The notes under the pieces are model-generated. The model was given only the letters and a program-made list of their open reading frames with translations. It was not told the DNA's origin and did no database searches. A stretch of 64,000 nucleotides of DNA from Nanobdellota archaeon (GTDB taxonomy: Archaea > Nanobdellota > Nanobdellia > Pacearchaeales > GW2011-AR1), in contig JAKADZ010000002.1 in the NCBI GenBank assembly GCA_021818475.1, positions 64,536 to 128,535 of the forward strand, in the 5' to 3' direction. Positions 7,291 to 59,596 of this stretch are shown piece after piece. The translations under genes were made by a program, and so were the position numbers. Position 1 is the stretch's first letter, and every line of letters starts with the position of its first letter.

Positions 7291-7414
7291 TTATTATCAG
7301 ACAACTTCCTCTGGGGGCGGGCGATTTCGCGAGGACAAATTTCGGTTGTGGAGGGGTGGATGGCGGAGGATAAAAAATCGAGCGAAGTCGCTAGTTGGGC
7401 GGAAAAAAGTCGCT
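7291..7414 (+). repeat. modular intergenic repeat, copy 2 (long GC-rich E module)
   Basis: ctgggggcgggcgatttcgcgagg ... atcgagcgaagtcgctagttgggcgg. Shares the gcgatttcgcg and agcg-a/g-gtcgc..agttggg-y-gg blocks with copies at 27866, 28345, 35061, 53407 and 58905. Confidence 0.8.
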
Positions 7415-10970: not shown

Positions 10971-11019
10971 AACCCAACCGTTTTTGTTGAAAAAATCAAT
11001 TTTGTTTTTACAAATATTT

Positions 11020-11060
11020 GCGGACAGCGAAGCTGTCCAAGGGCGGGAGGGCAGGGGATA
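11020..11060 (+). repeat. repeat-family fragment: GAA-loop hairpin + G-quadruplex motif
   Basis: ggacagc-gaa-gctgtcc at 11022-11038, followed by gggcgggagggcagggg at 11041-11057. Confidence 0.7.
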
Positions 11061-11113
11061 AAAAACAAAATTGTAATAAGAGGATATTTTCAGCAAAAAT
11101 AACCCAATCGCAA

Positions 11114-12997: not shown

Positions 12998-14203
12998 ATG
13001 GAAAGCATAAAGTTTGAAACAATAAAAAAAATCAGTGAAATTGGTTTTAGAAACAGAAATTTAAGGAATATTTCAAAATTAGACAGCAATTCTCCTCCGA
13101 GTGTTTTTATCGGCAGCAAATTAAAATATCCATTAGTCAATGTCGGAATCCTGTCTCCTTTGGAAAGAGAAGATAATGTTCAGATTTATGACGATGCAAA
13201 ATTCTGGGCGGAGAATAACTTAAAGATAGAAGATGTTTTAAGGTTAAGAAATGGTTTGTTAAATTCGCGATTTCAGTCAAATGTTCATGATTCAAGAACA
13301 GAAAAAAATTTTGTTCAGATGGCGCAGGAAATAGCAATCGCCTCTAATCCGGTAGATATCGAGATTGAATTAAAAAATAAATTGAATATGAACAGAAATC
13401 CGGACAAGGTCCTTACTCCCCACGGGATGAGTGCAGGATTAAAAAAAGCAAAGATAGTCAGCAATGTAAAAGTTCATCAGAAAGTTGACCGCGTGATAAA
13501 TGATGAAATCAAAGCAAATGAAGGTATCCAGATGCTTTACAAAAATGGATTTAATGAATACACCCTAAGCAAAATTCTCAGTGTCGGTGTTTTAGGGCTG
13601 AAAAAAAATAAAAAACTTGTTCCGACAAGATGGAGCATCACTGCAACAGATGACTCACTGGGAAAAGTTTTGATAAACAAAATAAAAGACTACCCCGTAA
13701 TTGAAAACTATGAATTATTTTTCGGGGAATTTTTGGGAAATCAATACCTGATAATGCTGTTTCCAAGAATTTGGAGCTATGAACTTTTTGAATTATATCT
13801 CCCAAAGAGTTCCTGGAATCCTTCTGATGAGATAAAAGCTTCAACGGATTACGAAAATTATGAAGGAAGAAAAGAATATGCCTATGCAACTGCCGGAGGA
13901 TATTATGCATCACGGCTTCCTATTGCGGAATATCTAAGTTCAATAAAAAAGCAGGCTTCTGCGCTGGTTATCCGAATTGAAACTCCAAGTTATTGGGCAG
14001 GTCTTGGAGTCTGGGTTGTCAGGGAAAGTGTCAGAAAAGCAATTGCAAAAAAAATGGAATTTACCGACGAAAAAGAACTTATGGAAAGTTCAAAAAAAGT
14101 AGGAAAGATAAAATATGGGTTTGATATTTCAGGAATTTTGTCAAAAAGTTTAATATTAAAAGAAAAAAGGGAGCAAAAATCTCTGAGAGATTTTTGGATT
14201 TAA
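12998..14203 (+). CDS. Nre-family DNA repair protein (DUF650/DUF651)
   Basis: 401 aa. PPSVFIGSKLKYPLVNVGILSP N-terminal signature and VPTRWSITATDD. Adjacent to radB. Confidence 0.7.
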   Translation: MESIKFETIKKISEIGFRNRNLRNISKLDSNSPPSVFIGSKLKYPLVNVGILSPLEREDNVQIYDDAKFWAENNLKIEDVLRLRNGLLNSRFQSNVHDSRTEKNFVQMAQEIAIASNPVDIEIELKNKLNMNRNPDKVLTPHGMSAGLKKAKIVSNVKVHQKVDRVINDEIKANEGIQMLYKNGFNEYTLSKILSVGVLGLKKNKKLVPTRWSITATDDSLGKVLINKIKDYPVIENYELFFGEFLGNQYLIMLFPRIWSYELFELYLPKSSWNPSDEIKASTDYENYEGRKEYAYATAGGYYASRLPIAEYLSSIKKQASALVIRIETPSYWAGLGVWVVRESVRKAIAKKMEFTDEKELMESSKKVGKIKYGFDISGILSKSLILKEKREQKSLRDFWI

Positions 14204-27559: not shown

Positions 27560-28204
27560 TTATATTTCCTCTTCCAACTTCTTAATTTTCATCCAGACTT
27601 TTTCAAACTTAGTGTTGGACTCATCAACGATTATTTTTAAAAAATTATCATCGACCAAAAGTTTTCCATCCTGAATTATTGGAAGTTCAATTTTTTCGCT
27701 TGCATTAAGTTCAACAATAAAATTTTTTTTAAGTTCAATAATTCCTGATTTTTTCCATCCCGCTAATTTTCCTTTTTCATAAATTTTTTCAGCATCTTCA
27801 AGTGTTTTGCATGCAATATGGAGAATGCACGGTTCGAATTTGAATTTAATATTTTTAATTCCCTTTTGGGTGGGCGAGCGATTTCGCGAAGGAAAGGTCA
27901 GTGACGAGTGAGCAGGGTCACGAGTTGGGTGGGAACTGGTTATAGAAATCAATTTTCCCAATTCATCTTTCAGTTCCTTAAATGAAATTTTATCGTGGGA
28001 AACAAAAACAAATAAGTTCTCTGCCTTTTTATCCTGGTCAATCATAAGTAAAACTCTTCCTGAACATGAAGAAGTGGTGTAATAATTTTCTAGAGAATTT
28101 ATCTTGTCGCATAAAGAAGAAATTTTCTCATCCCATTTTCCAATTGAAGATTTATCTTCTTTTGAGAGAATATCCTTTTTTCTCTGATTAAAATTGTCTT
28201 TCAT
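27560..28204 (-). CDS. taw3: tRNA wyosine-derivative methyltransferase Taw3/TYW3-like, carrying an in-frame repeat insertion
   Basis: NYYTTSSCSGRVLLM motif of the TYW3 family and ...FEPCILHIACKTLEDAEKIYEKGKLAGWKKSGI. Start placed at ATG 28204 (MKDNFNQRKK); the track ORF extends to 28297. Insert peptide is SHPTRDPAHSSLTFPSRNRSPTQKG. Confidence 0.75.
   Translation of the reverse strand: MKDNFNQRKKDILSKEDKSSIGKWDEKISSLCDKINSLENYYTTSSCSGRVLLMIDQDKKAENLFVFVSHDKISFKELKDELGKLISITSSHPTRDPAHSSLTFPSRNRSPTQKGIKNIKFKFEPCILHIACKTLEDAEKIYEKGKLAGWKKSGIIELKKNFIVELNASEKIELPIIQDGKLLVDDNFLKIIVDESNTKFEKVWMKIKKLEEEI
27862..27938 (+). repeat. GC-rich E module of the repeat family located inside the Taw3-like CDS
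   Basis: ccttttgggtgggcgagcgatttcgcgaaggaaaggtcagtgacgagtgagcagggtcacgagttgggtgggaact. ttgggtggg occurs at both ends (27866-27874 and 27925-27933). Confidence 0.9.
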
Positions 28205-28295
28205 AACAGAAAAATGAAAATGAAGGTTAATAAATTTATCAAGTCCTTTTTGAAGTAGAGTGTAACCAGTTGAACAAAGTTTACTTCTTAATTTC

Positions 28296-28435
28296 AATCA
28301 ATCCAAAAAATTCTGAAAGAATTTTTTGCTCTCTTTCTTTTTTGAGTAGGCAAGCGATTTCGCTAATAGAAATTAATTTCCCTTCGGGTGGGAGGGCGGG
28401 GATTAATGAGCGGGGTCGCGAATTGGGGGGAATTA
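28296..28435 (+). repeat. modular intergenic repeat, copy (D hairpin variant + E module with G-quadruplex motif)
   Basis: caaaaaattc-tgaaa-gaattttttg at 28304-28328. gtaggcaagcgatttcgct... gggtgggagggcgggg at 28386-28401. aatgagcggggtcgcgaattgggggg. Confidence 0.85.
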
Positions 28436-28509
28436 GTAATTAATATAAATTATTTTTTCTCCAATTTGGCTCGTTAGAGACGAATTGTATTAATTTAATA
28501 AATGAAAGG

Positions 28510-28537
28510 GAACGAAGTGAACTTTTGAACTTCGTTC
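28510..28537 (-). terminator. hairpin + T-rich tract just downstream of the MBL-fold gene
   Basis: gaacgaagt (28510-28518) pairs with acttcgttc (28529-28537) across a 10-nt loop. It lies 10 nt past the stop at 28548 and is followed on the minus strand by CCCUUUCAUUUAUU. Confidence 0.4.
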
Positions 28538-28547
28538 AAATAGGCAT

Positions 28548-29213
28548 TCATTTTTTCTCCAGAATTTTTGCATGAATTCCATTCTCTTCGCATAACTTCA
28601 CAAACTCTTCTGCATCTTCATTTGTTCCTATGATATTTGCATAATGCATCGGAATTGCAAGTGCAGGTTTTATCAGCTTAGCTGCTTCGGCAGCCTCTTC
28701 TGCATTCATCGTAAACTTTCCCCCTACAGGAAGAAGCGCGATAAATTGTTTATTCTGCTGATTATGTCCTGTAAGTTTCTGCATTTCAGGAATCAAATCA
28801 GTATCTCCTGCATGATAAATAATAACATCATTCATTTTGACAATATAACCAACCCATCCTTCTTCTTTAGGATGATATTGTTTGTCAAGGTTATATGCAG
28901 GCATAGTTGAAATTTTCAGTTCACCAAAACTAAGTTCCTGATTTGGCTCAACAATCTGAATATCTACCGGAACATCAAGTCGGGTAATTTTACTTTGTGA
29001 ATCCGCAGTAAGGACTATCTTGGTTCCTTTTTTAATGATATTTTTTATATCCGCAATACTGCAGTGATCATAATGACTGTGAGTAATAAGAATAATATCA
29101 GCTTTTTCAGAGTTTTCTTTTATATTAAAAGGGTCGATATAAATTATTCTGTGATTTTTTATTAAGAATCCGGAATGACCAAGCCACTGAATTTCTATTT
29201 CCCCTATGTTCAT
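28548..29213 (-). CDS. metallo-beta-lactamase-fold hydrolase (UPF0173-like)
   Basis: 221 aa. QWLGHSGF, ILITHSHYDHC (HxHxDH) and HAGDT motifs. Confidence 0.85.
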   Translation of the reverse strand: MNIGEIEIQWLGHSGFLIKNHRIIYIDPFNIKENSEKADIILITHSHYDHCSIADIKNIIKKGTKIVLTADSQSKITRLDVPVDIQIVEPNQELSFGELKISTMPAYNLDKQYHPKEEGWVGYIVKMNDVIIYHAGDTDLIPEMQKLTGHNQQNKQFIALLPVGGKFTMNAEEAAEAAKLIKPALAIPMHYANIIGTNEDAEEFVKLCEENGIHAKILEKK

Positions 29214-29257: not shown

Positions 29258-30268
29258 TTATCTCTTAGATACGCTTATTCTATGTTTTGAAAAAAATCTG
29301 AATGTAAAAAATCCAAGCACAACAGCGACCAAAACTCCGGAAGAGATGAATACATTTGTTTTGTTGCTGAAGAAATTTCCAACTGCCCCGATAGGTCCTT
29401 TGATTACACTGCCAACTAAGTTAAAGAAATTTTGTTTAGATTGAGTTTGGGTTTCATTTACGATAGGAGAAGTGCAGGCTTGTGAAGTTTCAGGCATTCC
29501 TTCCTGAATTCCGCAATTATTTGAATCTGTACATGCCCTAACCTGAGTCCCGTTAATACATTCCTGCCAGTCACCACAATTCCAGTTAGGAGAACATGTG
29601 GGAGTTTGCTGAATTGCATCCGCAGTTGCTGTAGTTGAAGTGGTATCAGGAGTAGTAGTTGCACTTACACATTCATGAATTATTGAAGGTTCTGTTAAAG
29701 TAGTCCCGCAGGAATTTGAATCAGTACAGGTTCTTGTTTTATTGCCGTTTGTACAATCAGTCCAGTCCGTGCATGTCCAGTTTTCAACACAAGCAGAAGT
29801 GCAAGTCTGGCTTAACACAGGTTCATCATTTGTGGTCCCGCAGGAATTTGAATCAGTACAGGTTCTTGTCTGAGTTCCATCCGTGCAGTCAGTCCAGTCC
29901 GTGCATGCCCAGTTTTCAGCACAGGTTACAGTGGAATTTGTAGTATCTGTTGAATTTGTAACTGTGGAATTTAAATCAGTAGAATTAGTAATTGTGGAAT
30001 TTGTAGTATCTGTTGAATTTGTAACTGTGGAATTTAAATCAGTAGAATTAGTAATTGTGGAATTTGTAGTAGTTGAAGCTGATGCTACAGATAAATCAAC
30101 ACAAGTGTTATTGACCCATGAATAATTAGCTGCCTCGCATGAAGTCTGATTAGTGTAATCTGAAACTGCATAACCGGTAAACTTAAAATTAGACTGAAGA
30201 ATAATAACTCCGATAGCAAAAGCGAGTAGGATCAGAATTCCAAATTCATGTGCAAACCTCTTTTTCAT
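29258..30268 (-). CDS. secreted/membrane-anchored Cys-repeat surface protein rich in N-glycosylation sequons
   Basis: 336 aa. N-terminal signal/TM and C-terminal TM. Three copies of C-x-ENW-x-C-TDW-TDC-x-G-x-x-TRTCTDSNSCGT. Tandem NST-rich segment (TNSTITNSTDLNSTVTNSTDT, two copies). Confidence 0.75.
   Translation of the reverse strand: MKKRFAHEFGILILLAFAIGVIILQSNFKFTGYAVSDYTNQTSCEAANYSWVNNTCVDLSVASASTTTNSTITNSTDLNSTVTNSTDTTNSTITNSTDLNSTVTNSTDTTNSTVTCAENWACTDWTDCTDGTQTRTCTDSNSCGTTNDEPVLSQTCTSACVENWTCTDWTDCTNGNKTRTCTDSNSCGTTLTEPSIIHECVSATTTPDTTSTTATADAIQQTPTCSPNWNCGDWQECINGTQVRACTDSNNCGIQEGMPETSQACTSPIVNETQTQSKQNFFNLVGSVIKGPIGAVGNFFSNKTNVFISSGVLVAVVLGFFTFRFFSKHRISVSKR
29931..30071. repeat. 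perfect 63-bp tandem duplication (2.2 copies) inside the surface-protein gene
   Basis: 29931-29993 is identical to 29994-30056, followed by a partial third copy. The unit is a multiple of 3 and encodes 21 aa of N-x-T sequons. Confidence 0.95.
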
Positions 30269-30329: not shown

Positions 30330-32498
30330 TTATCTTTTCCTTTTCATTTCCCTTCTAATCTTCCTCTTATTTTTTCTTATTTCTTTTCTCTGCTTTCTAC
30401 TTAGTCCATTCTTAGCTCTTCTGTTATGAATAACTCTGATTAAAACAATTGCAAAAATTCCTGTTAAAATTGTTCCTATTAAGAATTTGAACTGTCCTGA
30501 TTTGTAAAATGAAACTGTGCATTTCCCATTGTCGCATGTGTCTGAGCAGTGGTCTGTTACAAGCCATGTTGCATTTCCTAAACATAATTGAACATTATTG
30601 TCCGCGCATCTTGCAGAATTTGGAAGGCAGTCATATTTGTTGAAGAAAATTGCGAAAGTCGAAAATCCAGGAGTTGAAGATTTGAAGTAATAAGCGTTGT
30701 CATCTTCGCCTGTATAATTTGTAATTAAAGGCGCCCAGCTTGAAGTTCCTGTCGGCATTCTGTAAACTGCAATATTTCCGACGATATCATTTTGCAAGAG
30801 CCAGTATCTGTTCGCTTTATGATGAAAAGTGATATTATTTTCTGCAAGGAAAGTTTTGTTTATTTTGAAATCTAAAGTTGCATTTAAAATGTCATTATAT
30901 TGAATTCCTAATGGTTCAATCTGAAATAACTGATACAATTTCCCTATAGGTAATCCGAATAATAAAAATTCAGTCTGGTCAACTTTAGTAATATTCATTG
31001 ATGCATTTTCAACAGACTTTTTCAGAATTAAAGTTATTCCTGTCAAATCCATTTTTGTATTATTTAATGTTATCTGAACAGGTTCTGAAGGAGCTACATT
31101 CATAATAGGTTTTGAAATTGTAACGCTTCCTCCACCGCCACCCCCACTCGGAGATTGAGGCGGAGCTACATGCCCCCCAGTAGAACAAGTTTGGGTTTCT
31201 GCAGGCTTGCCTGCAGTTGTTCCACAAGCATTTGCGTCAGTGCATGTTCTTGTTTGAATTCCTCCAGAACAATCTGACCAAGCAGAACAACCCCACGATT
31301 CAAAGCAGGGGTTTTGCAGGCTGATATTTGAAGCATTTAACTGATAAATGGTATCTCCTCCAAACATAATATTAAGTACTCCCGCATAAACATATCCTCC
31401 CCCAATAGAGATAGAGTTTCCATGACCTGTAGTGGTGTAATTTGCGATTTGCTGTGAAACATTTGAAGCATTTAACTGATAAATTTCATATGGGCCATTA
31501 TCACTACTAAAATAAACGTAGCCGTTTGAAACTGCTGGAGAAGAAGTTGAAAAACCGCTAATATTTGCGATTTGCTGTGAAACATTTGAAGCATTTAACT
31601 GATAAAAGTCATTGTAGTCTCCAATGTAAACGTAGCCGTTTGAAACTGCGGGGGAATAACTCAGACTGGCTCCAGAAGAATAATTTGCGATTTGCTGTGA
31701 AACATTTGAAGCATTTAACTGATAAAGATTATCTGCCCCTACATAAACGTAGCCGTTTGAAACTGCTGGAGAAGAAGGAACAGTATAAAGAGGTATCAAA
31801 TAATTTGCGATTTGCTGTGAAACATTTGAAGCATTTAACTGATAAATTATATATTTTACTGCTCCCTTAAGAGAACTAGAGACAGTAAAATAAACATAGC
31901 CGTTTGAAACTGCTGGAGAAGAAAATGTTTTTCCCCCAGTTGAAAAACTATTTACCATTTGTGAGATATTTGAAGCATTTAACTGATAAAAATTAAAATT
32001 AACAGAATCTCCAACATAAACATAGCCGTTTGAAACTGCTGGAGAATCAAAAGTATCAATTCCCCCAGAATAATTTGCGATTTGCTGTGAAACATTTGAA
32101 GCATTTAACTGATAAAGACCGTTAGAACCAAAGTATAAAAAACCATTTGCAATAACCGGAGAGGAGGAACATACAGCAGAATAATTTGCGATTTGCTGTG
32201 AAACATTTGAAGCATTTAACTGATAAAGATTATCTGCCCCTACATAAACGTAGCCGTTTGAAATTATAGATGGAGAAGGTATACTTGCTAAGGGATTAAA
32301 GGGAGTAGTAAAATTTGCATTGTTTAAATTAGGAATTACTGTAAAATTCTGCCCATCCCAAAAACTATGACCTAAAGTTCTTCCAAACATTAACCATTCA
32401 CTTGTCGAAGAAGAATCTGAACCCTGACTGGAAATAAATAAAATTAAAAATAATAAACATAATGCAAAAATAAAAAAAATAATCCCCTCTTTTTTCAT
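30330..32498 (-). CDS. large surface protein with ~10 PQQ-like beta-propeller repeats, one Cys-repeat module, C-terminal TM and basic tail
   Basis: 722 aa with a signal peptide. Repeats are of the form SPAVSNGYVYVG...YQLNASNVSQQIANYS. Also CFESWGCSAWSDCSGGIQTRTCTDANACGT, a Gly-rich linker, a TM helix and RRAKNGLSRKQRKEIRKNKRKIRREMKRKR. Confidence 0.8.
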   Translation of the reverse strand: MKKEGIIFFIFALCLLFLILFISSQGSDSSSTSEWLMFGRTLGHSFWDGQNFTVIPNLNNANFTTPFNPLASIPSPSIISNGYVYVGADNLYQLNASNVSQQIANYSAVCSSSPVIANGFLYFGSNGLYQLNASNVSQQIANYSGGIDTFDSPAVSNGYVYVGDSVNFNFYQLNASNISQMVNSFSTGGKTFSSPAVSNGYVYFTVSSSLKGAVKYIIYQLNASNVSQQIANYLIPLYTVPSSPAVSNGYVYVGADNLYQLNASNVSQQIANYSSGASLSYSPAVSNGYVYIGDYNDFYQLNASNVSQQIANISGFSTSSPAVSNGYVYFSSDNGPYEIYQLNASNVSQQIANYTTTGHGNSISIGGGYVYAGVLNIMFGGDTIYQLNASNISLQNPCFESWGCSAWSDCSGGIQTRTCTDANACGTTAGKPAETQTCSTGGHVAPPQSPSGGGGGGSVTISKPIMNVAPSEPVQITLNNTKMDLTGITLILKKSVENASMNITKVDQTEFLLFGLPIGKLYQLFQIEPLGIQYNDILNATLDFKINKTFLAENNITFHHKANRYWLLQNDIVGNIAVYRMPTGTSSWAPLITNYTGEDDNAYYFKSSTPGFSTFAIFFNKYDCLPNSARCADNNVQLCLGNATWLVTDHCSDTCDNGKCTVSFYKSGQFKFLIGTILTGIFAIVLIRVIHNRRAKNGLSRKQRKEIRKNKRKIRREMKRKR
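31321..32270. repeat. array of near-identical intragenic repeats (44-nt perfect core, 6 full + 2 partial copies)
   Basis: atttgcgatttgctgtgaaacatttgaagcatttaactgataaa occurs at 31440, 31563, 31683, 31803, 32073 and 32184. Partial copies lie at 31324 and 31957. Confidence 0.95.
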
Positions 32499-32531: not shown

Positions 32532-33563
32532 TCATTTTCCAAGAATATTTTCCTTAAATTTCTCAAAATCTTTTTTCATAAATCTTGCTCCCGAAGCCCT
32601 TGGATGTCCTCCGCCATTTGCATTCTCAAGACCTTCAATTCCTTTTTTCATCAAAACATTCATGTCTTCCTTACCCCCATTACTTCTTGAGCTGACTTTG
32701 TAATAATCAGGATTATCCAGCTGCGGGGAAACAAATATAAAACTTTTGTCAGGCTGCTCTAAAGAAAGTATAGTGGTTACAATGGAAGTGACCCCATATT
32801 TTGGGGTAGCAAAATAAAAATAAAGATTTTTTTCCGGATAATATTCTGCATCTTTTCTGAAAGAGTCAACAAATTTTGCAATTTCAGAATCAATAATCTT
32901 CCGGTATTTTCCAAAACTTCTTAATTTATTCTTTTTTATAAGATTAAAGATTTTCTTTTCTTTACCTGCAAAATAAACCAAAGAAGAGGAAATATTCTTT
33001 GACCATTCTCCTGGTTCAGAATCGTGAATATTTTCTTTAGTCACATTTGGATAATGTTGCTGAATAAATCTAAAGTTAAATTCATCATTAAAAGAAAATT
33101 CAGAAACCATTGTGGCGCAGACAAGCCATTCCAGTCTGCTTAAATCATATATTTCTTTAGACAAGTCATAAATTGTAAACGCTGCACAATCTGGAGTTTT
33201 TGTTTTTATAATATTCTTCCCTTTTATTTCATAAGGATGATGATCAATTAAGAAAGTATCAAATTTTTTTCTTAATTCCTCAAAGCCAGCCATATCAGAA
33301 TTTACACTCAAGTCGCAAAGAATAACTTTATTGATTTTTTTTCTGGATAATTCTGGAAAAAGTTCTTCAAATAATCCAACTTTAAGCTGGACAAATTTCA
33401 AATCTTTGATTTTTCTTTTTTTATAATGTAATAATTTATCAAGAAGAACTGCAGATGCAACACCATCTAAATCATTATGGGCCAATACAGCAATTTTGTC
33501 TGTTTTTTTTATCCCATTAATATAATCCAAAAATTCTTTCTTGCTTCCTATTGAATATTCCAA
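32532..33563 (-). CDS. DHH/DHHA1 phosphoesterase (RecJ/NrnA-like)
   Basis: Motifs AHNDLDGVASA, FLIDHHP and GGGHPRASG. The longest ORF starts at TTG 33653 but overlaps gatA by 89 nt. I prefer TTG 33563, 1 nt after the gatA stop and behind aaggag. The start is uncertain. Confidence 0.75.
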   Translation of the reverse strand: MEYSIGSKKEFLDYINGIKKTDKIAVLAHNDLDGVASAVLLDKLLHYKKRKIKDLKFVQLKVGLFEELFPELSRKKINKVILCDLSVNSDMAGFEELRKKFDTFLIDHHPYEIKGKNIIKTKTPDCAAFTIYDLSKEIYDLSRLEWLVCATMVSEFSFNDEFNFRFIQQHYPNVTKENIHDSEPGEWSKNISSSLVYFAGKEKKIFNLIKKNKLRSFGKYRKIIDSEIAKFVDSFRKDAEYYPEKNLYFYFATPKYGVTSIVTTILSLEQPDKSFIFVSPQLDNPDYYKVSSRSNGGKEDMNVLMKKGIEGLENANGGGHPRASGARFMKKDFEKFKENILGK

Positions 33564-33564
33564 T

Positions 33565-34947
33565 TTATTCTCCTTTTCGACGACTTCCTGCCGTCGGGTT
33601 GCTGGAGTTGGGAAGAACCCGCTGGAGGTTAACCTTTTCAAAGCTTCTTGCAATCTGAAATAATTTTTGTTCGTTTAATTTTTCACAGATAATCTGCATT
33701 CCTATGGGGATTTTATCAATTTCCCCCGCAGGTATGCTGATAGCACAGTCCCCTGATAAATTAATGGGGGAAGTTAATGCATCATATTGGAACATTTCCT
33801 CAATTGAAATTTTCTCTCCGATTTTATGGGGAAGCCTTGGAACAGTCGGGCAGATTAAACAATCAAACTTCCTGAAAGTTTTTTTGAATTCTTCCTCAAT
33901 TAACTTCCTTGCTTTCAGAGCAAGATGATAATATCTTCCTGCATGTTCTGCCTTGCTTATTTCACTTCCACCCAAAATTCTTCTCAAAACTTCAGGTCCG
34001 CATGCTTCTTCAATTTTTTTCCCGAATCTTCTGCCATCAAGTCTTCTTGTACATGAAAAAAATTCAGTATAAACAATTGGAAAATAAGTTGCAACAGCAA
34101 AATCGATGTATTCTAATTTTATTTTTTCCGATTTCCACTTATATTTTTTAACAGTTTCCTCAATTTTTTTGTCAATTAAATTCTGAATTCGCAGGTCATT
34201 TATTTTAAAATCCAAAATTCCTATTTTAATATCTCGCGGAACTTCTTCAACTTCTTTGAGATTAATATTACTGCCCAAACTAATTGCATCTTTTTCATCT
34301 TTTCCTTTGATAATATCGAATAAAAGTGCGGCATCAGAAACATTTTTTGCAATCGGCCCGACCTGATCTAAACTCATGCTCATGTCAATTAAACCGTATC
34401 TTGAAACACTCCCGTAGCTTGGTTTTAATCCTACAACTCCGCAATGAGATGCAGGAACTCTTATGCTTCCGCCGGTATCGCTTCCTAAGGACATATCGCA
34501 AAAATCTGCAGAAACACTCGCGCAGCTTCCGGATGAACTTCCTCCCGCAACTAGTCCTAATGATTTTGGATTATTCGTCGCACCAAACGCAGAAGTTTCT
34601 CCGCTCCAGCCGCATGCAAATTCATCGCAGTTTGCCATTCCGATAATTAATCCGTCTTCCTCTTTTATTTTTTTTATAACTTCTGCATCGTAAGGAGATT
34701 TATAATTTTCCAAAACTTTGCTTCCGCATGATGCATGCAATCCAAGAACATTTATGTTAGCTTTAACAGCAATTATTTTTCCTGCAAGTTTTCCCGCTTT
34801 CTTTTTCTTGATTTTCTCATCAATCAGCTTCGCTTCTTCCATCGCATTAGGATTTATCTCAAGAATTGCATTTATTCTGTTTCCGCTTTTATTATGCATT
34901 TCAATCTGATTCAAGTATGTTTGAAGTCGTTCTTGTGTCGTTACCAT
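33565..34947 (-). CDS. gatA: Asp/Glu-tRNA amidotransferase subunit A
   Basis: 460 aa with the amidase signature (GGSSSGSCASV, ANCDEFACG, GSDTGGSIRVPAS). Confidence 0.92.
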   Translation of the reverse strand: MVTTQERLQTYLNQIEMHNKSGNRINAILEINPNAMEEAKLIDEKIKKKKAGKLAGKIIAVKANINVLGLHASCGSKVLENYKSPYDAEVIKKIKEEDGLIIGMANCDEFACGWSGETSAFGATNNPKSLGLVAGGSSSGSCASVSADFCDMSLGSDTGGSIRVPASHCGVVGLKPSYGSVSRYGLIDMSMSLDQVGPIAKNVSDAALLFDIIKGKDEKDAISLGSNINLKEVEEVPRDIKIGILDFKINDLRIQNLIDKKIEETVKKYKWKSEKIKLEYIDFAVATYFPIVYTEFFSCTRRLDGRRFGKKIEEACGPEVLRRILGGSEISKAEHAGRYYHLALKARKLIEEEFKKTFRKFDCLICPTVPRLPHKIGEKISIEEMFQYDALTSPINLSGDCAISIPAGEIDKIPIGMQIICEKLNEQKLFQIARSFEKVNLQRVLPNSSNPTAGSRRKGE

Positions 34948-35312
34948 TTCTTTTTCTCCGCAATTATAAAATCTTTATTTGCTTCTGGTGCATTTTCAAA
35001 CATTATTCTCTTGTCAAGTTCGCAGATTTTTGAAGTTTCGCGAATAGAATTATTTCCCCGTTGGGTGGGCGAGCGATTTCGCGAAGTTGAGGTCAGTGTT
35101 ATGTGAGCGGGGTCGGGAGTTGGGTGGGAATTAATGAGCGAAACAGAATTTTCTTCCCTTTCAAATTTTTCCCGTTCAATTGAATTATCAACTTCAATCT
35201 TTTGTTTAATCTGAGAAAGTTTCTTGGAGAAAGAATCAATTATAGAATCAACCTGTTTCTTTACTTCTTCCTTTTCTTTATCAGACATTTGTCGCCATAA
35301 AAAATCATCCAT
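34941..35312 (-). CDS. gatC: GatC-like amidotransferase subunit C carrying an in-frame repeat insertion
   Basis: Overlaps the gatA start by 7 nt. The C-terminus ...RIMFENAPEANKDFIIAEKK resembles the GatC L-x-N-A-P...F-x-V-P tail. Insert peptide is SHPTPDPAHITLTSTSRNRSPTQRG. Confidence 0.55.
   Translation of the reverse strand: MDDFLWRQMSDKEKEEVKKQVDSIIDSFSKKLSQIKQKIEVDNSIEREKFEREENSVSLINSHPTPDPAHITLTSTSRNRSPTQRGNNSIRETSKICELDKRIMFENAPEANKDFIIAEKKKW
35055..35140 (+). repeat. GC-rich E module of the repeat family located inside the GatC-like CDS
   Basis: tccccgttgggtgggcgagcgatttcgcgaagttgaggtcagtgttatgtgagcggggtcgggagttgggtgggaattaatgagcg. ttgggtggg occurs at 35061-35069 and 35120-35128, the same 59-nt spacing as in the Taw3 copy. 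Confidence 0.9.
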
Positions 35313-44228: not shown

Positions 44229-44625
44229 TTATCACCTCTTTTTTATTTAAGAAGTTGGATTTAATCTGTTTTATTTTGTTGGGATTTCATTTGAGTTTTT
44301 TCTCCTTAACAATTTTTCCGGCGTAGCGTCGTGTCTGAAAGCCGACACAAAGCAATCAATAATAAAAAAAGAAAGGATAAAATTTTTCTTCCCTCTTCGG
44401 ATGTGCGAGCGTTTGCACAAGTGATAACTTTCCTCTTGGGGCGGGGGCGGGAAGAAAATTCCCTTGAATATGAGAAACTTCGCGAGTAGAAACATTTTCC
44501 CTTCGGGCGTGAGGGGGGGAATAAATGAGCGAAGTCGCGAATGAAATTCTATTAAATAAATTTACTCCATAAAAAAATATTCCTTTGGGGAGGGCGGGTG
44601 GGAACGGGTAGAATAAGGCAAGAAA
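44229..44625 (+). repeat. largest cluster of the modular repeat (A motif, hairpin module, several E-type GC modules, G-quadruplex motif)
   Basis: ttatcacctctttttt at 44229-44244. gtgtc-tgaaagcc-gacac hairpin. gatgtgcgagcgtttgcac. ggggcgggggcggg at 44438-44451. aatgagcgaagtcgcgaatg. ggggagggcgggtggg at 44587-44602. Confidence 0.85.
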
Positions 44626-44828: not shown

Positions 44829-44990
44829 TTGGGTAAAATAATCTTCCGATTTTTAAAGATTATTGTGATAAAAATTCCTTTTAAGTTACGATTAAAAAAA
44901 TTTCCTTTGGGTTTTCTACCACATTAGGTTCTTTCCGAATTTCTATGCGGAATGGGTAAGTTTCTACTCTCACTTTTTTCAAAAGAACCC

Positions 44991-45009
44991 ATGAGCCCAC
45001 GAGGAATTG
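44991..45009 (-). repeat. duplicated 3' fragment of tRNA-Arg (19 nt, identical to 45164-45182)
   Basis: atgagcccacgaggaattg is repeated exactly, covering the T-loop/T-stem/acceptor 3' strand plus 1 nt. The two copies are separated by 154 bp. Confidence 0.9.
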
Positions 45010-45079
45010 GGCCTCACGTTCGCTCGACCTAATTCATCTTTTTCAAATCCGAATTAAACCCAAGAGTTCAATTCAAATA

Positions 45080-53325: not shown

Positions 53326-53485
53326 TTATCGCCTCTTTTTTAAAACATATTTGCAGTTAATTCTAATTAACCAACAGATTTTTCCCTCATTAACAAATTT
53401 TCCCTCGGGGGTGGGCGAGAGTTTTCGCAATGCCAGTAAATTTTTGAATGCATTTGCGAGGGCTCGAGTTGGGCGGGAACAAGTA
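53326..53485 (+). repeat. modular intergenic repeat, copy (A-motif variant, attaacaaatttt module, long E module)
   Basis: ttatcgcctcttttt at 53326-53340. gggggtgggcgagagttttcgcaatg...tttgcgagggctcgagttgggcgggaac at 53407-53480. Confidence 0.8.
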
Positions 53486-56391: not shown

Positions 56392-57326
56392 TTCAATAAT
56401 CCTTCTTTTTTCATTTTTTCGAGAACACTGCTCATTATGAGAGGAAAAGTTATTGAAACATCTCCGATAACTGTAGCAGCTTCTCCGTCATCTTTTATTT
56501 TTCCCCATGATTTTGCTTCCTGTGTCGTAGCCCCCGACATAGAGCCGGAACTTGAATGCGAAGTTGTAAGATAAACTGCATAATCAAAACCTCCTGAAAG
56601 CAAAGCAGCAAAGATTGCATAATGTTTTGAGATGCTCCCTCCTAAGGAGATTAATCCTTTTTTCTCATCAAAACTTAAATCAACAGTTATTCTCTCCATA
56701 TCTTTTATGACATCAACAACAAAATCAGGATGTTTTTGCTGGAACATATATAACTGAAAACCAAAAGAAGAATCTGCAATTCCTGGGCAATAAATAGGAA
56801 TATTATTTTTAGCTGCCTGAAATAAAACTGAATTATTATCGTTTAGCATCATTCCTATTTCATAAATTAATTCAGAAGAGGAAATTCTTTTTTTCTTCTC
56901 ATAAATTTTTTCTAAAAGTTCAGTCATCTTATCTTCAAATTTCATGTAACCCGAAGTATGGATTAACAAATTGCCAACTCTGTTTTCCCCGCGTTCATGC
57001 ATTGAAACATCATCAGCATTAAAATTAGTTATTTCAAAATTTTCTCCAAGAGATTTTATGATATCTTCCTCAATCGAACCGGAAGTGGTTACGAGAATAT
57101 TTGGAATATTTAATTCGCATAATTGTGCAAAAAATCCTCTCAATCCAGAAGTCGCCATGTTAGAAGTAAATGTAAGAAAAATCCTTGCATTTGTTCTTTT
57201 CATTTTCATAATTACTTTGACTGCTTCAGAAAGTTCTGTCGCCTGATAGCCGACAGAGCCGAGACTATCAACGAGCGCCTCAACAGACATACCTTCAGAC
57301 CATAAAAAATCTTTGACTAATTTCAT
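56388..57326 (-). CDS. dys: deoxyhypusine synthase
   Basis: 312 aa. IFLTFTSNMATSGLRG, NILVTTSGSIEEDI and LISLGGSISKH blocks are typical of DHS. Confidence 0.88.
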   Translation of the reverse strand: MKLVKDFLWSEGMSVEALVDSLGSVGYQATELSEAVKVIMKMKRTNARIFLTFTSNMATSGLRGFFAQLCELNIPNILVTTSGSIEEDIIKSLGENFEITNFNADDVSMHERGENRVGNLLIHTSGYMKFEDKMTELLEKIYEKKKRISSSELIYEIGMMLNDNNSVLFQAAKNNIPIYCPGIADSSFGFQLYMFQQKHPDFVVDVIKDMERITVDLSFDEKKGLISLGGSISKHYAIFAALLSGGFDYAVYLTTSHSSSGSMSGATTQEAKSWGKIKDDGEAATVIGDVSITFPLIMSSVLEKMKKEGLLK

Positions 57327-57480
57327 TTTAGAAAAAGCACAGCTACACTTATTGTTTTGGAATCGGAATCGCCAAAATAGTGTAATCGCTCTGCATAAAA
57401 AAACTAAAATAAGGTCATTTTTAAATCTTCCTCAAGAAATATTCAAAGTTCTAAAGACATAAGTTTCAGGCGAGTCAATC

Positions 57481-58233
57481 CTAACTTGCTCTCCTAACTG
57501 CCCTTACCCCGAGAGCGGAAAACTGATTAGAGGGAATCCTGCTGCAAATGAGGCTAACCCACTCGGGATCAGCAACGAACCTAGCGACTGAATTATTATC
57601 GCTTCGCGAATACCAATAATATAAATTTCCTGATTTAATTTTTTTATTTGGAAGTCCTTGTTTTGTATGAGAGTTATCTAAATAATCTTCCAAAGAAATT
57701 CCCGGCTCTTTATCTTTCATTAGAGTATCTCTATCAAGAATGTTTGAACTTCTTGGAACAAGATTTCCATTTGAATCTAAAATATGATTATAATTAATTA
57801 CTAAATCTTTTCCGTTTGTTTTAAAATAAGCATCAATCCATTCTGCTCTCTGAGGATTTCTTACTTCGGTAATTTCTTTGTAAATATCTTGGTGATTTAT
57901 TTTGCAATATTTCAAGAACTCAATAAACTCAGGAAGAATCAACATTCTTTCATTATTTGCCTGAAGAAGTTTATGGCAATCAAACCAATTTTCTCCTAAA
58001 CAAGTTCTTTCTTTTGCAACATAAAGATTTATTGAAGGAACATAAATAAAACGATTATCTTTTTGAAGAGAAGTATGTCTTTCTAATATCTCTTTTACTC
58101 TCTCTTGATTTAATCTTAAACTTGGATCAGAACAAACTTCCTGAATAAATGATAAATCTTCTCCTTGAGATAAGAAATCTCTGATTATCTCTCTTTCTGT
58201 CTGATAAGTTTCAGTTAATTCTTCAGTTTGCAT
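57481..58233 (-). CDS. hypothetical protein (250 aa) with a GC-rich 3' end
   Basis: Clean ORF with no motif recognised. The last ~40 codons (57481-57610) are visibly GC-richer than the rest. Confidence 0.5.
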   Translation of the reverse strand: MQTEELTETYQTEREIIRDFLSQGEDLSFIQEVCSDPSLRLNQERVKEILERHTSLQKDNRFIYVPSINLYVAKERTCLGENWFDCHKLLQANNERMLILPEFIEFLKYCKINHQDIYKEITEVRNPQRAEWIDAYFKTNGKDLVINYNHILDSNGNLVPRSSNILDRDTLMKDKEPGISLEDYLDNSHTKQGLPNKKIKSGNLYYWYSRSDNNSVARFVADPEWVSLICSRIPSNQFSALGVRAVRRAS

Positions 58234-58682: not shown

Positions 58683-58992
58683 AGGCTTAACCAAAAAGGA
58701 AAACGGGTTAGATTATTTTAGTTAGTTCAAACACAAATTCAGGAAAGTTTAAACAAAAATTTAAGGAATTTCTTTATTAACAAATTTCCAAACAGAGCGC
58801 CTTGACGAATGTCTGGCGCGAAGCAATCAACATCAAAATTTCAGGGAAATTTTTAAGAAAGGATTAGGTTGTCTTCAACAGGCTTGACCACACTTTCAAG
58901 GGGAAAATGTGTGCGAGCGATTTCGCGGAAGTGAGGCCAGTGATATGCAAGCGAGGTCGCGAGTTGAGAAAACCGATTAGGTTGTCTTCAAC
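58683..58992 (+). repeat. modular intergenic repeat cluster (GC hairpin module, D hairpin variant, gattaggt module twice, long E module)
   Basis: agagcgccttgacgaatgtctggcgcgaagc. aaaatttc-agg-gaaatttt at 58835-58853. gattaggttgtcttcaac at 58862-58879 and again at 58975-58992. gtgtgcgagcgatttcgcggaagtgaggccagtgatatgcaagcgaggtcgcgagttgag. Confidence 0.85.
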
Positions 58993-59596
58993 TTAATAAA
59001 GCAATTAATGTCCCTTCAATAATTCCGGCAACAAGAAGAAGAGGGATTATTATTAACAGAAATACTTTTAGTGATTTTATCATATAATCTCTGAAAGATT
59101 GAAGTTTCTTTTTCTGGAATATGAAAGTTCCCATTTTTAACCCCAACCCAAGTGAAATAAAAACTGCGGGCAGTTCAAAAATTCCGTGGGGAAGAATTCT
59201 CCAGAGAGTCAAAAACCCGTCAGCTTTAACGCTTAAAAGTGAGACAAATCCAAGCATATAACCGTTTGCAATTGCACTTATGAGAGGAAAAATTCCCAGG
59301 ATTGTTCCAAAAACAATCACTAATAAAGTACTCTTAAGATTATTTGAAATTATAAACTGAATAAGCTGCATTTGGGACATCCCTGCAGTTTGCTTGACCA
59401 AATCCTGTATGAAAGAAATTATTTTTGTGTAAATAAATTGCGGAGCAGGTATAAAATAAGCAAAAAAAACAAAAAAGAAAAAAATCCCTATTGAAGCATA
59501 AATAAATTTTTTAGATTCTTTAATATACTTCCAGCTGTCTTTGTATTCTTCAGAAAGGCTGAATCCTTTCCTCTTTTTTTTTGTTTTTTTTACCAT
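58988..59596 (-). CDS. SpoIIM/DUF95-family membrane protein
   Basis: 202 aa, multi-TM. ILPHGIFELPAVFISLGLGLKMG is the family signature. Confidence 0.7.
   Translation of the reverse strand: MVKKTKKKRKGFSLSEEYKDSWKYIKESKKFIYASIGIFFFFVFFAYFIPAPQFIYTKIISFIQDLVKQTAGMSQMQLIQFIISNNLKSTLLVIVFGTILGIFPLISAIANGYMLGFVSLLSVKADGFLTLWRILPHGIFELPAVFISLGLGLKMGTFIFQKKKLQSFRDYMIKSLKVFLLIIIPLLLVAGIIEGTLIALLS

Follow-up and report, generated by a model that had tools for sequence, protein, structure and literature searches.

How can a short repeat that is scattered between the genes of an archaeal genome also reside within a conserved enzyme gene and leave that gene open? The question is raised by a 64,000-nt stretch of a Nanobdellota archaeon genome (contig JAKADZ010000002.1; hereafter the window, to which all coordinates refer unless a locus is named), in which a gene for a TYW3/Taw3-like protein of tRNA wybutosine synthesis carries a copy of a GC-rich interspersed repeat, here named element E. 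An earlier examination of the letters alone (the sequence-only reading) had compared this arrangement to the in-frame insertions of Rickettsia palindromic elements (RPEs), and every computational test run supported that comparison as regards in-frame insertion. Element E belongs to a repeat family whose members share a hairpin, related genomes have both empty and filled sites, the repeat resides in frame in conserved genes, and the TYW3 gene that hosts it is under purifying selection. We consider it likely that element E is a short, GC-rich, hairpin-forming and non-autonomous mobile DNA repeat resident in frame in genes of DPANN archaea of the Pacearchaeota/Woesearchaeota type; as such it would behave as a selfish mobile DNA.

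The host gene lies on the minus strand at 27560-28204, with its true ATG start at 28204, and encodes a product of 214 aa. Its assignment to TYW3, already made in the sequence-only reading, was borne out by Pfam PF02676 (E=3.7e-46, 157.6 bits against a cut-off of 27, with the whole profile covered), by the presence of all invariant TYW3 motifs and by the match of its structural model to solved TYW3 folds (see below). The exact 214-aa, insert-bearing product was found on 10 contigs from several independent samples, and the insert is therefore no assembly artefact. The insert measures 81 nt, that is, 27 codons in frame. The corresponding element E copy was placed at 27856-27940 (nhmmer E=1e-17), with boundaries uncertain by about 10 nt and with its G-rich strand on the plus strand; read on the minus strand, it corresponds to residues about 88-116. 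The insert peptide SSHPTRDPAHSSLTFPSRNRSPTQKG (residues 90-115) is encoded by 27860-27937, and the tryptic peptides predicted for the insert-bearing protein include DPAHSSLTFPSR and LISITSSHPTR. Of the three frames that this copy offers in the gene's orientation, two contain stops, and the one that is stop-free is the frame in use, as had been noted before.

Comparison with relatives indicated that the module has entered the gene. The syntenic locus L026, which has the same Lactamase_B-to-TYW3 gene order and whose protein is 85% identical apart from the insert, is shorter by exactly 81 nt (27 codons) at the site, whereas L029 (94% aa identity) has the same filled site. The empty site in L026, together with the DNA match to intergenic copies, confirmed that a copy of an interspersed repeat was inserted in frame in TYW3; a 32-nt piece of the module, for which shuffles gave an expectation of 0 chance matches, recurs at 35056. 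An alignment to further TYW3 relatives, which the sequence-only reading had proposed as a check, gave the same picture: among 102 relatives with recognisable anchors, 78 have canonical spacing and no insert, and about 22 carry extra residues at this single site.

A nucleotide profile (nhmmer) built from window and external copies recovered six window copies (E between 1e-17 and 1e-6), all with the G-rich strand on the plus strand and with a GC content of 40-50% (window, 32.8%). Besides the TYW3 copy, which the profile matches at 27856-27937, these comprise an intergenic copy with a long loop at 7304-7406 (E=1e-6), an intergenic copy at 28334-28433 with a G-run module nested in its loop (E=1e-7), a copy inside the GatC gene at 35052-35134 (E=4e-17), an intergenic copy at 53399-53482 with the subfamily arms GAGTTTTCGC/GCGAGGGCTC, which show compensatory changes (E=2e-10), and an intergenic core-only copy at 58907-58973, located 15 nt downstream of the gene at 58988-59596 (E=8e-15). 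A degenerate seventh copy on the same strand, at approximately 44389-44456, is represented by a weak nhmmer match (E=0.55) and by inspection of the sequence. The four intergenic copies listed in the sequence-only reading (7313-7405, 28345-28433, 53407-53480 and 58905-58968) were thus all found again, but that list was incomplete, the copy in GatC having been missed. The copy at 28334-28433 lies within a 340-bp spacer between the Lactamase_B and TYW3 genes (28208-28547) that is missing in L026, where both genes abut; in addition to the element copy, this spacer holds an AT-rich palindrome and a further hairpin, GAACGAAGTTCAAAAGTTCACTTCGTTC.

The GatC gene (34941-35312, minus strand), which adjoins GatA, hosts a second in-frame insertion. 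Its product has 123 aa, compared with 77-103 aa, and mostly 83-85 aa, for 54 other homologues, and among the 55 homologues the insert is seen in this genome only (one database entry, identical to the window protein). L111 provides the empty site, with a clean difference of 117 nt; that is, the net insertion amounts to 39 codons within an element-derived stretch of 42 aa (35022-35147, plus strand); the tryptic peptides predicted for GatC include one that spans SVSLINSHPTPDPAHITLTSTSR. The insert is nested: a complete inner element E (35052-35134), read in the same frame as the TYW3 copy to give the peptide SHPTPDPAHITLTSTSRNRSPTQRG, sits within an outer mini-hairpin, GTTTCGC...GCGAAAC, whose arms are perfectly complementary. 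Because of the insert, the protein scores 18.3 bits in Pfam, under the cut-off of 23, and the database entry has no precomputed domain. At the other end of the neighbouring GatA gene (33565-34947), a second GC-rich element family (33573-33641, minus strand) supplies the last 19 aa and the stop codon, the C-terminus reading ...SFEKVNLQRVLPNSSNPTAGSRRKGE in the window and ...SFEKLE in L111. A 38-nt match at 97% identity links the DNA of this tail element, which the sequence-only reading had missed, to the insert that the metagenomic relative L114 carries in TYW3, and tblastn with the insert of P0019 matches the tail element at E=5e-5. The listed TTG start of the open reading frame (ORF) at 32532-33653, which overlaps the tail element, is probably too far upstream.

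Beyond the window, a two-arm DNA pattern searched over 185,579 species-representative genomes matched 25 loci, 15 in metagenome-assembled genomes (MAGs) of Pacearchaeota, Woesearchaeota or Nanoarchaeota (about 13 MAGs) and 10 in GC-rich bacteria, the latter being about the number expected by chance. In the 517 kb made up of the window and the archaeal loci, 31 copies were detected, 17 of them intergenic and 14 within ORFs of at least 100 aa. For ten of the copies in ORFs the coding strand is the C-rich one and for four the G-rich one; in the C-rich orientation all three frames are in use somewhere. Four hosts of internal copies were confirmed by Pfam, namely an Elp3-like radical-SAM/GNAT protein, MnmA, a GatA amidase and a methyltransferase; in these, as in TYW3 and GatC, the reading frame of the conserved gene is kept. 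One copy lies at the 5′ edge of a prolyl-tRNA synthetase ORF, where it may be upstream of the true start. Across the loci, intergenic copies showed no orientation bias relative to neighbouring genes (10 versus 9 downstream of genes). At the protein level, alignment of the 42-aa element-encoded peptide gave no match among 5.8 billion proteins, and an exhaustive HMMER search of the element peptide against 1.84 billion representatives returned GatC itself and two unrelated repeat proteins only.

In the conserved core of element E, a loop that varies from 20 to 47 nt separates the arms GAGCGATTTCGCGA and GAGCGRGGTCGCGAGTTG; the loop may hold further modules or whole copies. The core spans about 55-85 bp, and up to about 120 bp is reached when copies are nested. 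GGGTGGG blocks, which might fold as a G-quadruplex, and short inverted termini are added in many copies, core-only copies have no terminal inverted repeats, and nested copies (those at 35056 and 28345 in the window, and those in L027 and L028) are flanked on both sides by AATT[AC]. In the TYW3 copy the stem arms are GCGATTTCGC (27878-27887) and GCAGGGTCAC (27912-27921), both on the plus strand, with two stem mismatches. When only the arms were counted, with a fixed spacer in place of the loops, 96.2% of the cells of the 10-bp stem were paired across copies, against 27-48% in slid controls, and four pairs were changed on both sides; the covariation score was 0.287 versus 0.168 in shuffles, with 0 of 500 shuffles reaching the observed value. 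The pairing is markedly strand-dependent: 270 of the 280 stem positions pair on the G-rich strand (195 Watson-Crick and 75 G-T/U wobble) compared with 199 on the C-rich strand. In the mRNA sense, which is C-rich, three C-A mismatches interrupt the stem. A point missed in the sequence-only reading is that element E is no simple palindrome; its hairpin pairs well on the G-rich strand only. Folds of single copies gave modest z-scores relative to shuffles and contained no bulge-helix-bulge motif, and no Rfam 15 family overlapped any copy at gathering scores, nor the region 27700-28600 at E<=10. An origin from a C/D-box small RNA, a kink-turn or a tRNA was also considered, on the sequence only, and rejected, with no consistent boxes visible and nothing supportive in Rfam.

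The extra residues found at the TYW3 site in other relatives range from 5 to 66 aa, and some are AT-rich and K/N-rich, unlike element E. Others are recognisable as elements. Element E itself is present in L112, read in a different frame (nhmmer E=1e-9); the 53407 subfamily is represented in L113, again in a different frame; and the second family in L114, where the ancestral ELNSALKK flank is kept. L027 and L028 contain nested or composite copies. Two more element families were also seen here, one of which (in L086) occurs at the GatC site in P0150 as well. On a neighbour-joining tree of the TYW3 core protein, sequences with inserts are interspersed with those that have none; the tree is short and poorly resolved. 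Related peptides do occur at the same position in some orthologues, a situation that the sequence-only reading had associated with ancestral protein sequence; yet, since the underlying DNA consists of element copies, some of them in other frames or of other families, they appear to be independent insertions. On these sequence comparisons, the TYW3 site is apparently a hot spot hit by independent insertions, not the scene of a single old event.

Further repeats were noted. The family of L086, with the signature ...PQAYT...K[SF]STKISTKG, is found in the TYW3 insert of that locus, at L071:420-509 and L105:427-519 and in GatC of P0150, i.e. at two hot spots in different relatives. A further family, encoding ...KKEPN[LMV]VENRK..., is present at 44905-44940 (a weak match, E=0.05), L028:111-158, L040:1170-1214 and L041; P0046/L041 has it as the TYW3 insert, and in other loci it is located upstream of TYW3. 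In L029, a fragment resembling an element terminus, TTCCCGCCCCACCC, follows right after the TYW3 stop (L029:1343-1375), with none at the equivalent place in the window. An AT-rich palindrome of about 45 nt, AATCCAAAAAATTCTGAAAGAATTTTTTGC, lies on both TYW3 flanks, directly past the stop codon (27517-27561) and upstream of the start (28295-28342), and again at 1196-1243, 14158-14200 (inverted), 21441-21488 and 57026-57057; it could represent a further repeat family or a T-run terminator working in both directions.

Whether the insert is read as protein was approached in 85 loci by placing the two halves of TYW3, N-terminal and C-terminal, separately from each other. In 85 of 85, both halves were in one frame and the interval between them was stop-free. 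Large gaps of 66-192 nt occurred in 16 loci, all multiples of three, and 12 of these came from a DNA-level search needing no intact ORF; the chance of 12 of 12 multiples of three is, on length alone, (1/3)^12, or about 2e-6. As all large inserts are in frame and stop-free, translation is favoured over splicing. Between the window and L029, whose sites are both filled, the TYW3 genes differ by 45 synonymous and 13 non-synonymous codon changes, and purifying selection has therefore acted after the insertion, in line with a working gene and not with the dead pseudogene that the sequence-only reading had named as the contrary outcome. An AlphaFold2 model of TYW3 (mean predicted local distance difference test score, pLDDT, 82.9; predicted template modelling score 0.76) predicts the insert as coil, with pLDDT <50 at residues 95-114, between a confident helix (76-91) and a confident strand (119-125). 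This agrees with a surface loop, for which the sequence-only reading had proposed a structure prediction as a check. Foldseek placed the solved TYW3 structures 2it2, 2drv and 2qg3 as top matches of the model (E=6e-13), and sequence alignments to solved TYW3 structures cover both flanks and skip the insert. Judged from the model and from the in-frame, stop-free inserts, the element is most likely translated, as a disordered surface loop.

These observations can be assembled into a scenario. Element E would have spread through DPANN genomes of the Pacearchaeota/Woesearchaeota type, and one 81-bp copy would have entered the part of TYW3 that encodes a linker between a helix and a beta-strand. The gene would have stayed open because the length of the insert is a multiple of three and its C-rich strand is stop-free in frame. 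The insert would then add 27 residues to the protein, with Pro, Ser, Thr, Arg and His abundant among them, as a disordered surface loop on an enzyme that still works. Copies in genes would be the survivors of selection, that is, only those in permissive loops, in frame and stop-free, and survival only in such loops would lead to the repeated hits on the same TYW3 and GatC sites by different copies, frames and families.

Several other explanations deserve consideration. The module could be removed before or at translation, either as a bulge-helix-bulge or other small intron or through ribosome bypass like that of the 'byp' elements, leaving a protein without the 27 residues. Element E is structured and GC-rich in an AT-rich genome, as would fit removal, GC-rich mobile inserts are bypassed in a yeast mitochondrion, and intron processing may operate in this genome, where Rfam detects at 21573-21666 (minus strand) a tRNA of an intron-length 94 nt (56 bits, missed by ARAGORN) that probably contains an intron. 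We nevertheless regard removal as very unlikely, because inserts that are never translated would not be expected to be multiples of three and stop-free in 16 of 16 cases, 12 of them from the DNA-level search, because copies occur in genes in both orientations and several frames, and because the mRNA-sense stem has the three C-A mismatches and no bulge-helix-bulge arrangement. That the insert is instead a fast-evolving, lineage-specific TYW3 loop, ancestral or locally expanded, whose likeness to the repeat is coincidental or gene-derived, is extremely improbable. It would accommodate the about 22 of 102 relatives with 5-66 extra aa here, including the K/N-rich ones unlike the element, but it conflicts with the DNA identity to intergenic copies and to copies in unrelated genes, both stem arms included, with the clean 81-nt gap in the closest insert-free relative, and with the presence at the same site of other frames in L112 and L113 and of a different family in L114.

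Short repeats can also mis-assemble in metagenomes, and TYW3 might be a pseudogene or an artefact caused by the repeat. Given an exact 214-aa product on 10 contigs from several independent samples, a filled site in the 94%-identical relative with a synonymous to non-synonymous ratio of 45:13, and every invariant TYW3 motif in place, this is scarcely credible. A mainly host-functional repeat, acting as a protein-binding DNA hairpin or as a structured RNA of the G-rich strand (antisense to TYW3 here), with the copies in ORFs as tolerated side effects, is an unlikely explanation but one that several features would suit: changes in the stem are compensatory or wobble-compatible, and so preserve the pairing, on the G-rich strand only, the insert exceeds the host gene four- to fivefold in conservation at the DNA level, and the six window copies all lie on the same strand. 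On the other hand, no Rfam family matches, the shuffle z-scores of single-copy folds are modest, intergenic copies across loci lack an orientation bias (10 versus 9 downstream of genes), and mobile repeats are the elements that typically show nesting, composite copies and polymorphism for presence or absence.

The interpretation of element E as a mobile repeat that is translated within its host proteins has itself to be weighed against several results. The terminal inverted repeats are short, being TTCCC/GGGAA in a subset of copies and reaching up to about 11 nt, ATCA(A)TTTTCCC/GGGAAAATGAT, in L020. Neither the TYW3 nor the GatC outer junctions show a clear target-site duplication, and no consistent one was established over the copies; a Pfam scan of the 38 window ORFs found housekeeping genes only and no transposase or mobilising gene, and viral contigs gave no match to the two-arm pattern. 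Insert-bearing TYW3 alleles often have in common a left flank of the form E-x-K-I-[IV]-S, in part apparently derived from the element, and some of them may therefore share ancestry. Finally, between the window and L029 the insert is more conserved than its host gene, with 2/75 against 68/564 nt differences (Fisher p=0.010), the opposite of the faster decay to be expected of a neutral passenger in such an AT-rich genome. All of these count against the interpretation to some degree, and the last suggests a constraint on DNA or RNA structure, concerted evolution between copies, or recent re-insertion or replacement.

As to how element E would move, the strand asymmetry of its stem, with G-T/G-U wobble, hints at a single-stranded intermediate of the G-rich strand. 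A broader proposal, which seems to us possible but doubtful, is that Pacearchaeota host several families of GC-rich hairpins that move through a single-stranded G-rich intermediate (HUH/RAYT-like DNA, or RNA) and that continually supply proteins of core translation and tRNA modification with new disordered loops and tails, defined hot-spot loops being hit repeatedly. If this were so, ongoing activity of the element, or selection on it, would account for the nucleotide conservation of the TYW3 copy, and the system would represent the RPE phenomenon in Archaea for the first time, and would have a mobilisation mechanism of its own.

Among known systems, the RPEs are inserted in frame in many unrelated genes at fold-compatible positions (Ogata et al. 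2000; reviewed in PMC10969869). Like them, element E is a short interspersed hairpin repeat that is both intergenic and in frame within many unrelated housekeeping genes, adds a peptide at a fold-compatible site, and occurs in the small AT-rich genome of a host-dependent organism. It shows no evident sequence relationship to RPEs, however, is shorter (about 55-85 bp versus about 100-150 bp), archaeal, GC-rich against its genome, strand-asymmetric in its stem, and nested and modular, with several families hitting the same loop sites. [quoted passage not shown] With MITEs such as ERIC, Correia and Nezha (PMC10969869, PMC11602168) it has in common the small size, the many copies, the origin from non-coding sequence and the polymorphism for presence or absence; copies also often lie just downstream of genes, and a subset have short terminal inverted repeats. 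Prokaryotic MITEs are occasionally fused in frame with genes (PMC10969869, PMC11602168), and a MITE census found one Woesearchaeal genome to be MITE-dense and about 89% of archaeal MITEs to be intergenic (PMC11602168). By comparison, about 45% of the detected element E copies are in ORFs, against about 11% for archaeal MITEs (PMC11602168). Element E further differs from MITEs in its very short terminal repeats and in that no clear target-site duplication and, among the 38 window ORFs, no parent insertion sequence was found.

Two other classes are relevant for their composition or their structure. In yeast mitochondria, GC clusters and 'byp' elements are GC-rich mobile hairpin modules of very AT-rich genomes that lie within protein-coding genes; some are translated in frame, while the byp elements of Magnusiomyces mitochondria break the frame and are bypassed by the ribosome. 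Element E resembles them as a GC-rich, probably mobile hairpin that lands in coding genes of an AT-rich genome, but those elements are organellar and eukaryotic, and every element E copy seen keeps the frame, whereas byps break it. The repetitive extragenic palindromic (REP) sequences with their REP-associated tyrosine transposases (RAYT), and the IS200/IS605-derived palindrome-associated transposable elements (PATEs), are recognised by an imperfect hairpin, and non-Watson-Crick pairs on one strand fit recognition as single-stranded DNA. Element E likewise has an imperfect hairpin instead of long terminal repeats and tolerates such pairs on one strand; it differs in having no conserved GTAG-type tetranucleotide and in having its arms split by the variable 20-47-nt loop, and no Y1/HUH transposase is encoded among the 38 window ORFs scanned.

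The sequence-only reading had known of no such insertion in DPANN-type archaea, and full-text searches directed at DPANN, Pacearchaeota or archaea gave no description of in-frame repeat elements of this kind; the family is thus apparently undescribed in archaea. It would extend the RPE-type phenomenon, in which selfish repeats join proteins and which is known mainly from Rickettsia, to the Archaea and to the reduced genomes of DPANN, and would show, concretely and in a datable way, where essential enzymes can obtain new disordered segments and C-terminal tails. Since GatC falls under the Pfam cut-off when it carries the insert, genes can look 'missing' in metabolic reconstructions from DPANN MAGs. 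The recurrent hot spots and the one-strand hairpin may also offer a handle on an archaeal mobilisation mechanism.

Other GC-rich islands in genes were examined as possible element copies and rejected, being mostly normal conserved motifs, and an extra insert suspected in the Toprim domain of a topoisomerase proved to be ordinary sequence. GC-rich stretches at 57467-57590 (over the 3′ end of the ORF at 57481-58233) and at 44979-45038 (between genes near a tRNA-Arg) had no Rfam match at gathering score. At 11007-11070, an intergenic GC-rich hairpin, GGACAGC-GAA-GCTGTCC, is followed by a G-run block, GGGCGGGAGGGCAGGGGA, similar to the module that the 28334-28433 copy contains within its loop. Between TYW3 and GatA, the window encodes two large, secreted-looking proteins with internal tandem repeats (29258-30268 and 30330-32498), one with TNSTD and CTDWTDC modules and the other with units of about 111-135 nt across 31313-32282; a Pro/Gly-rich linker at 31112-31214 reaches 70% GC.

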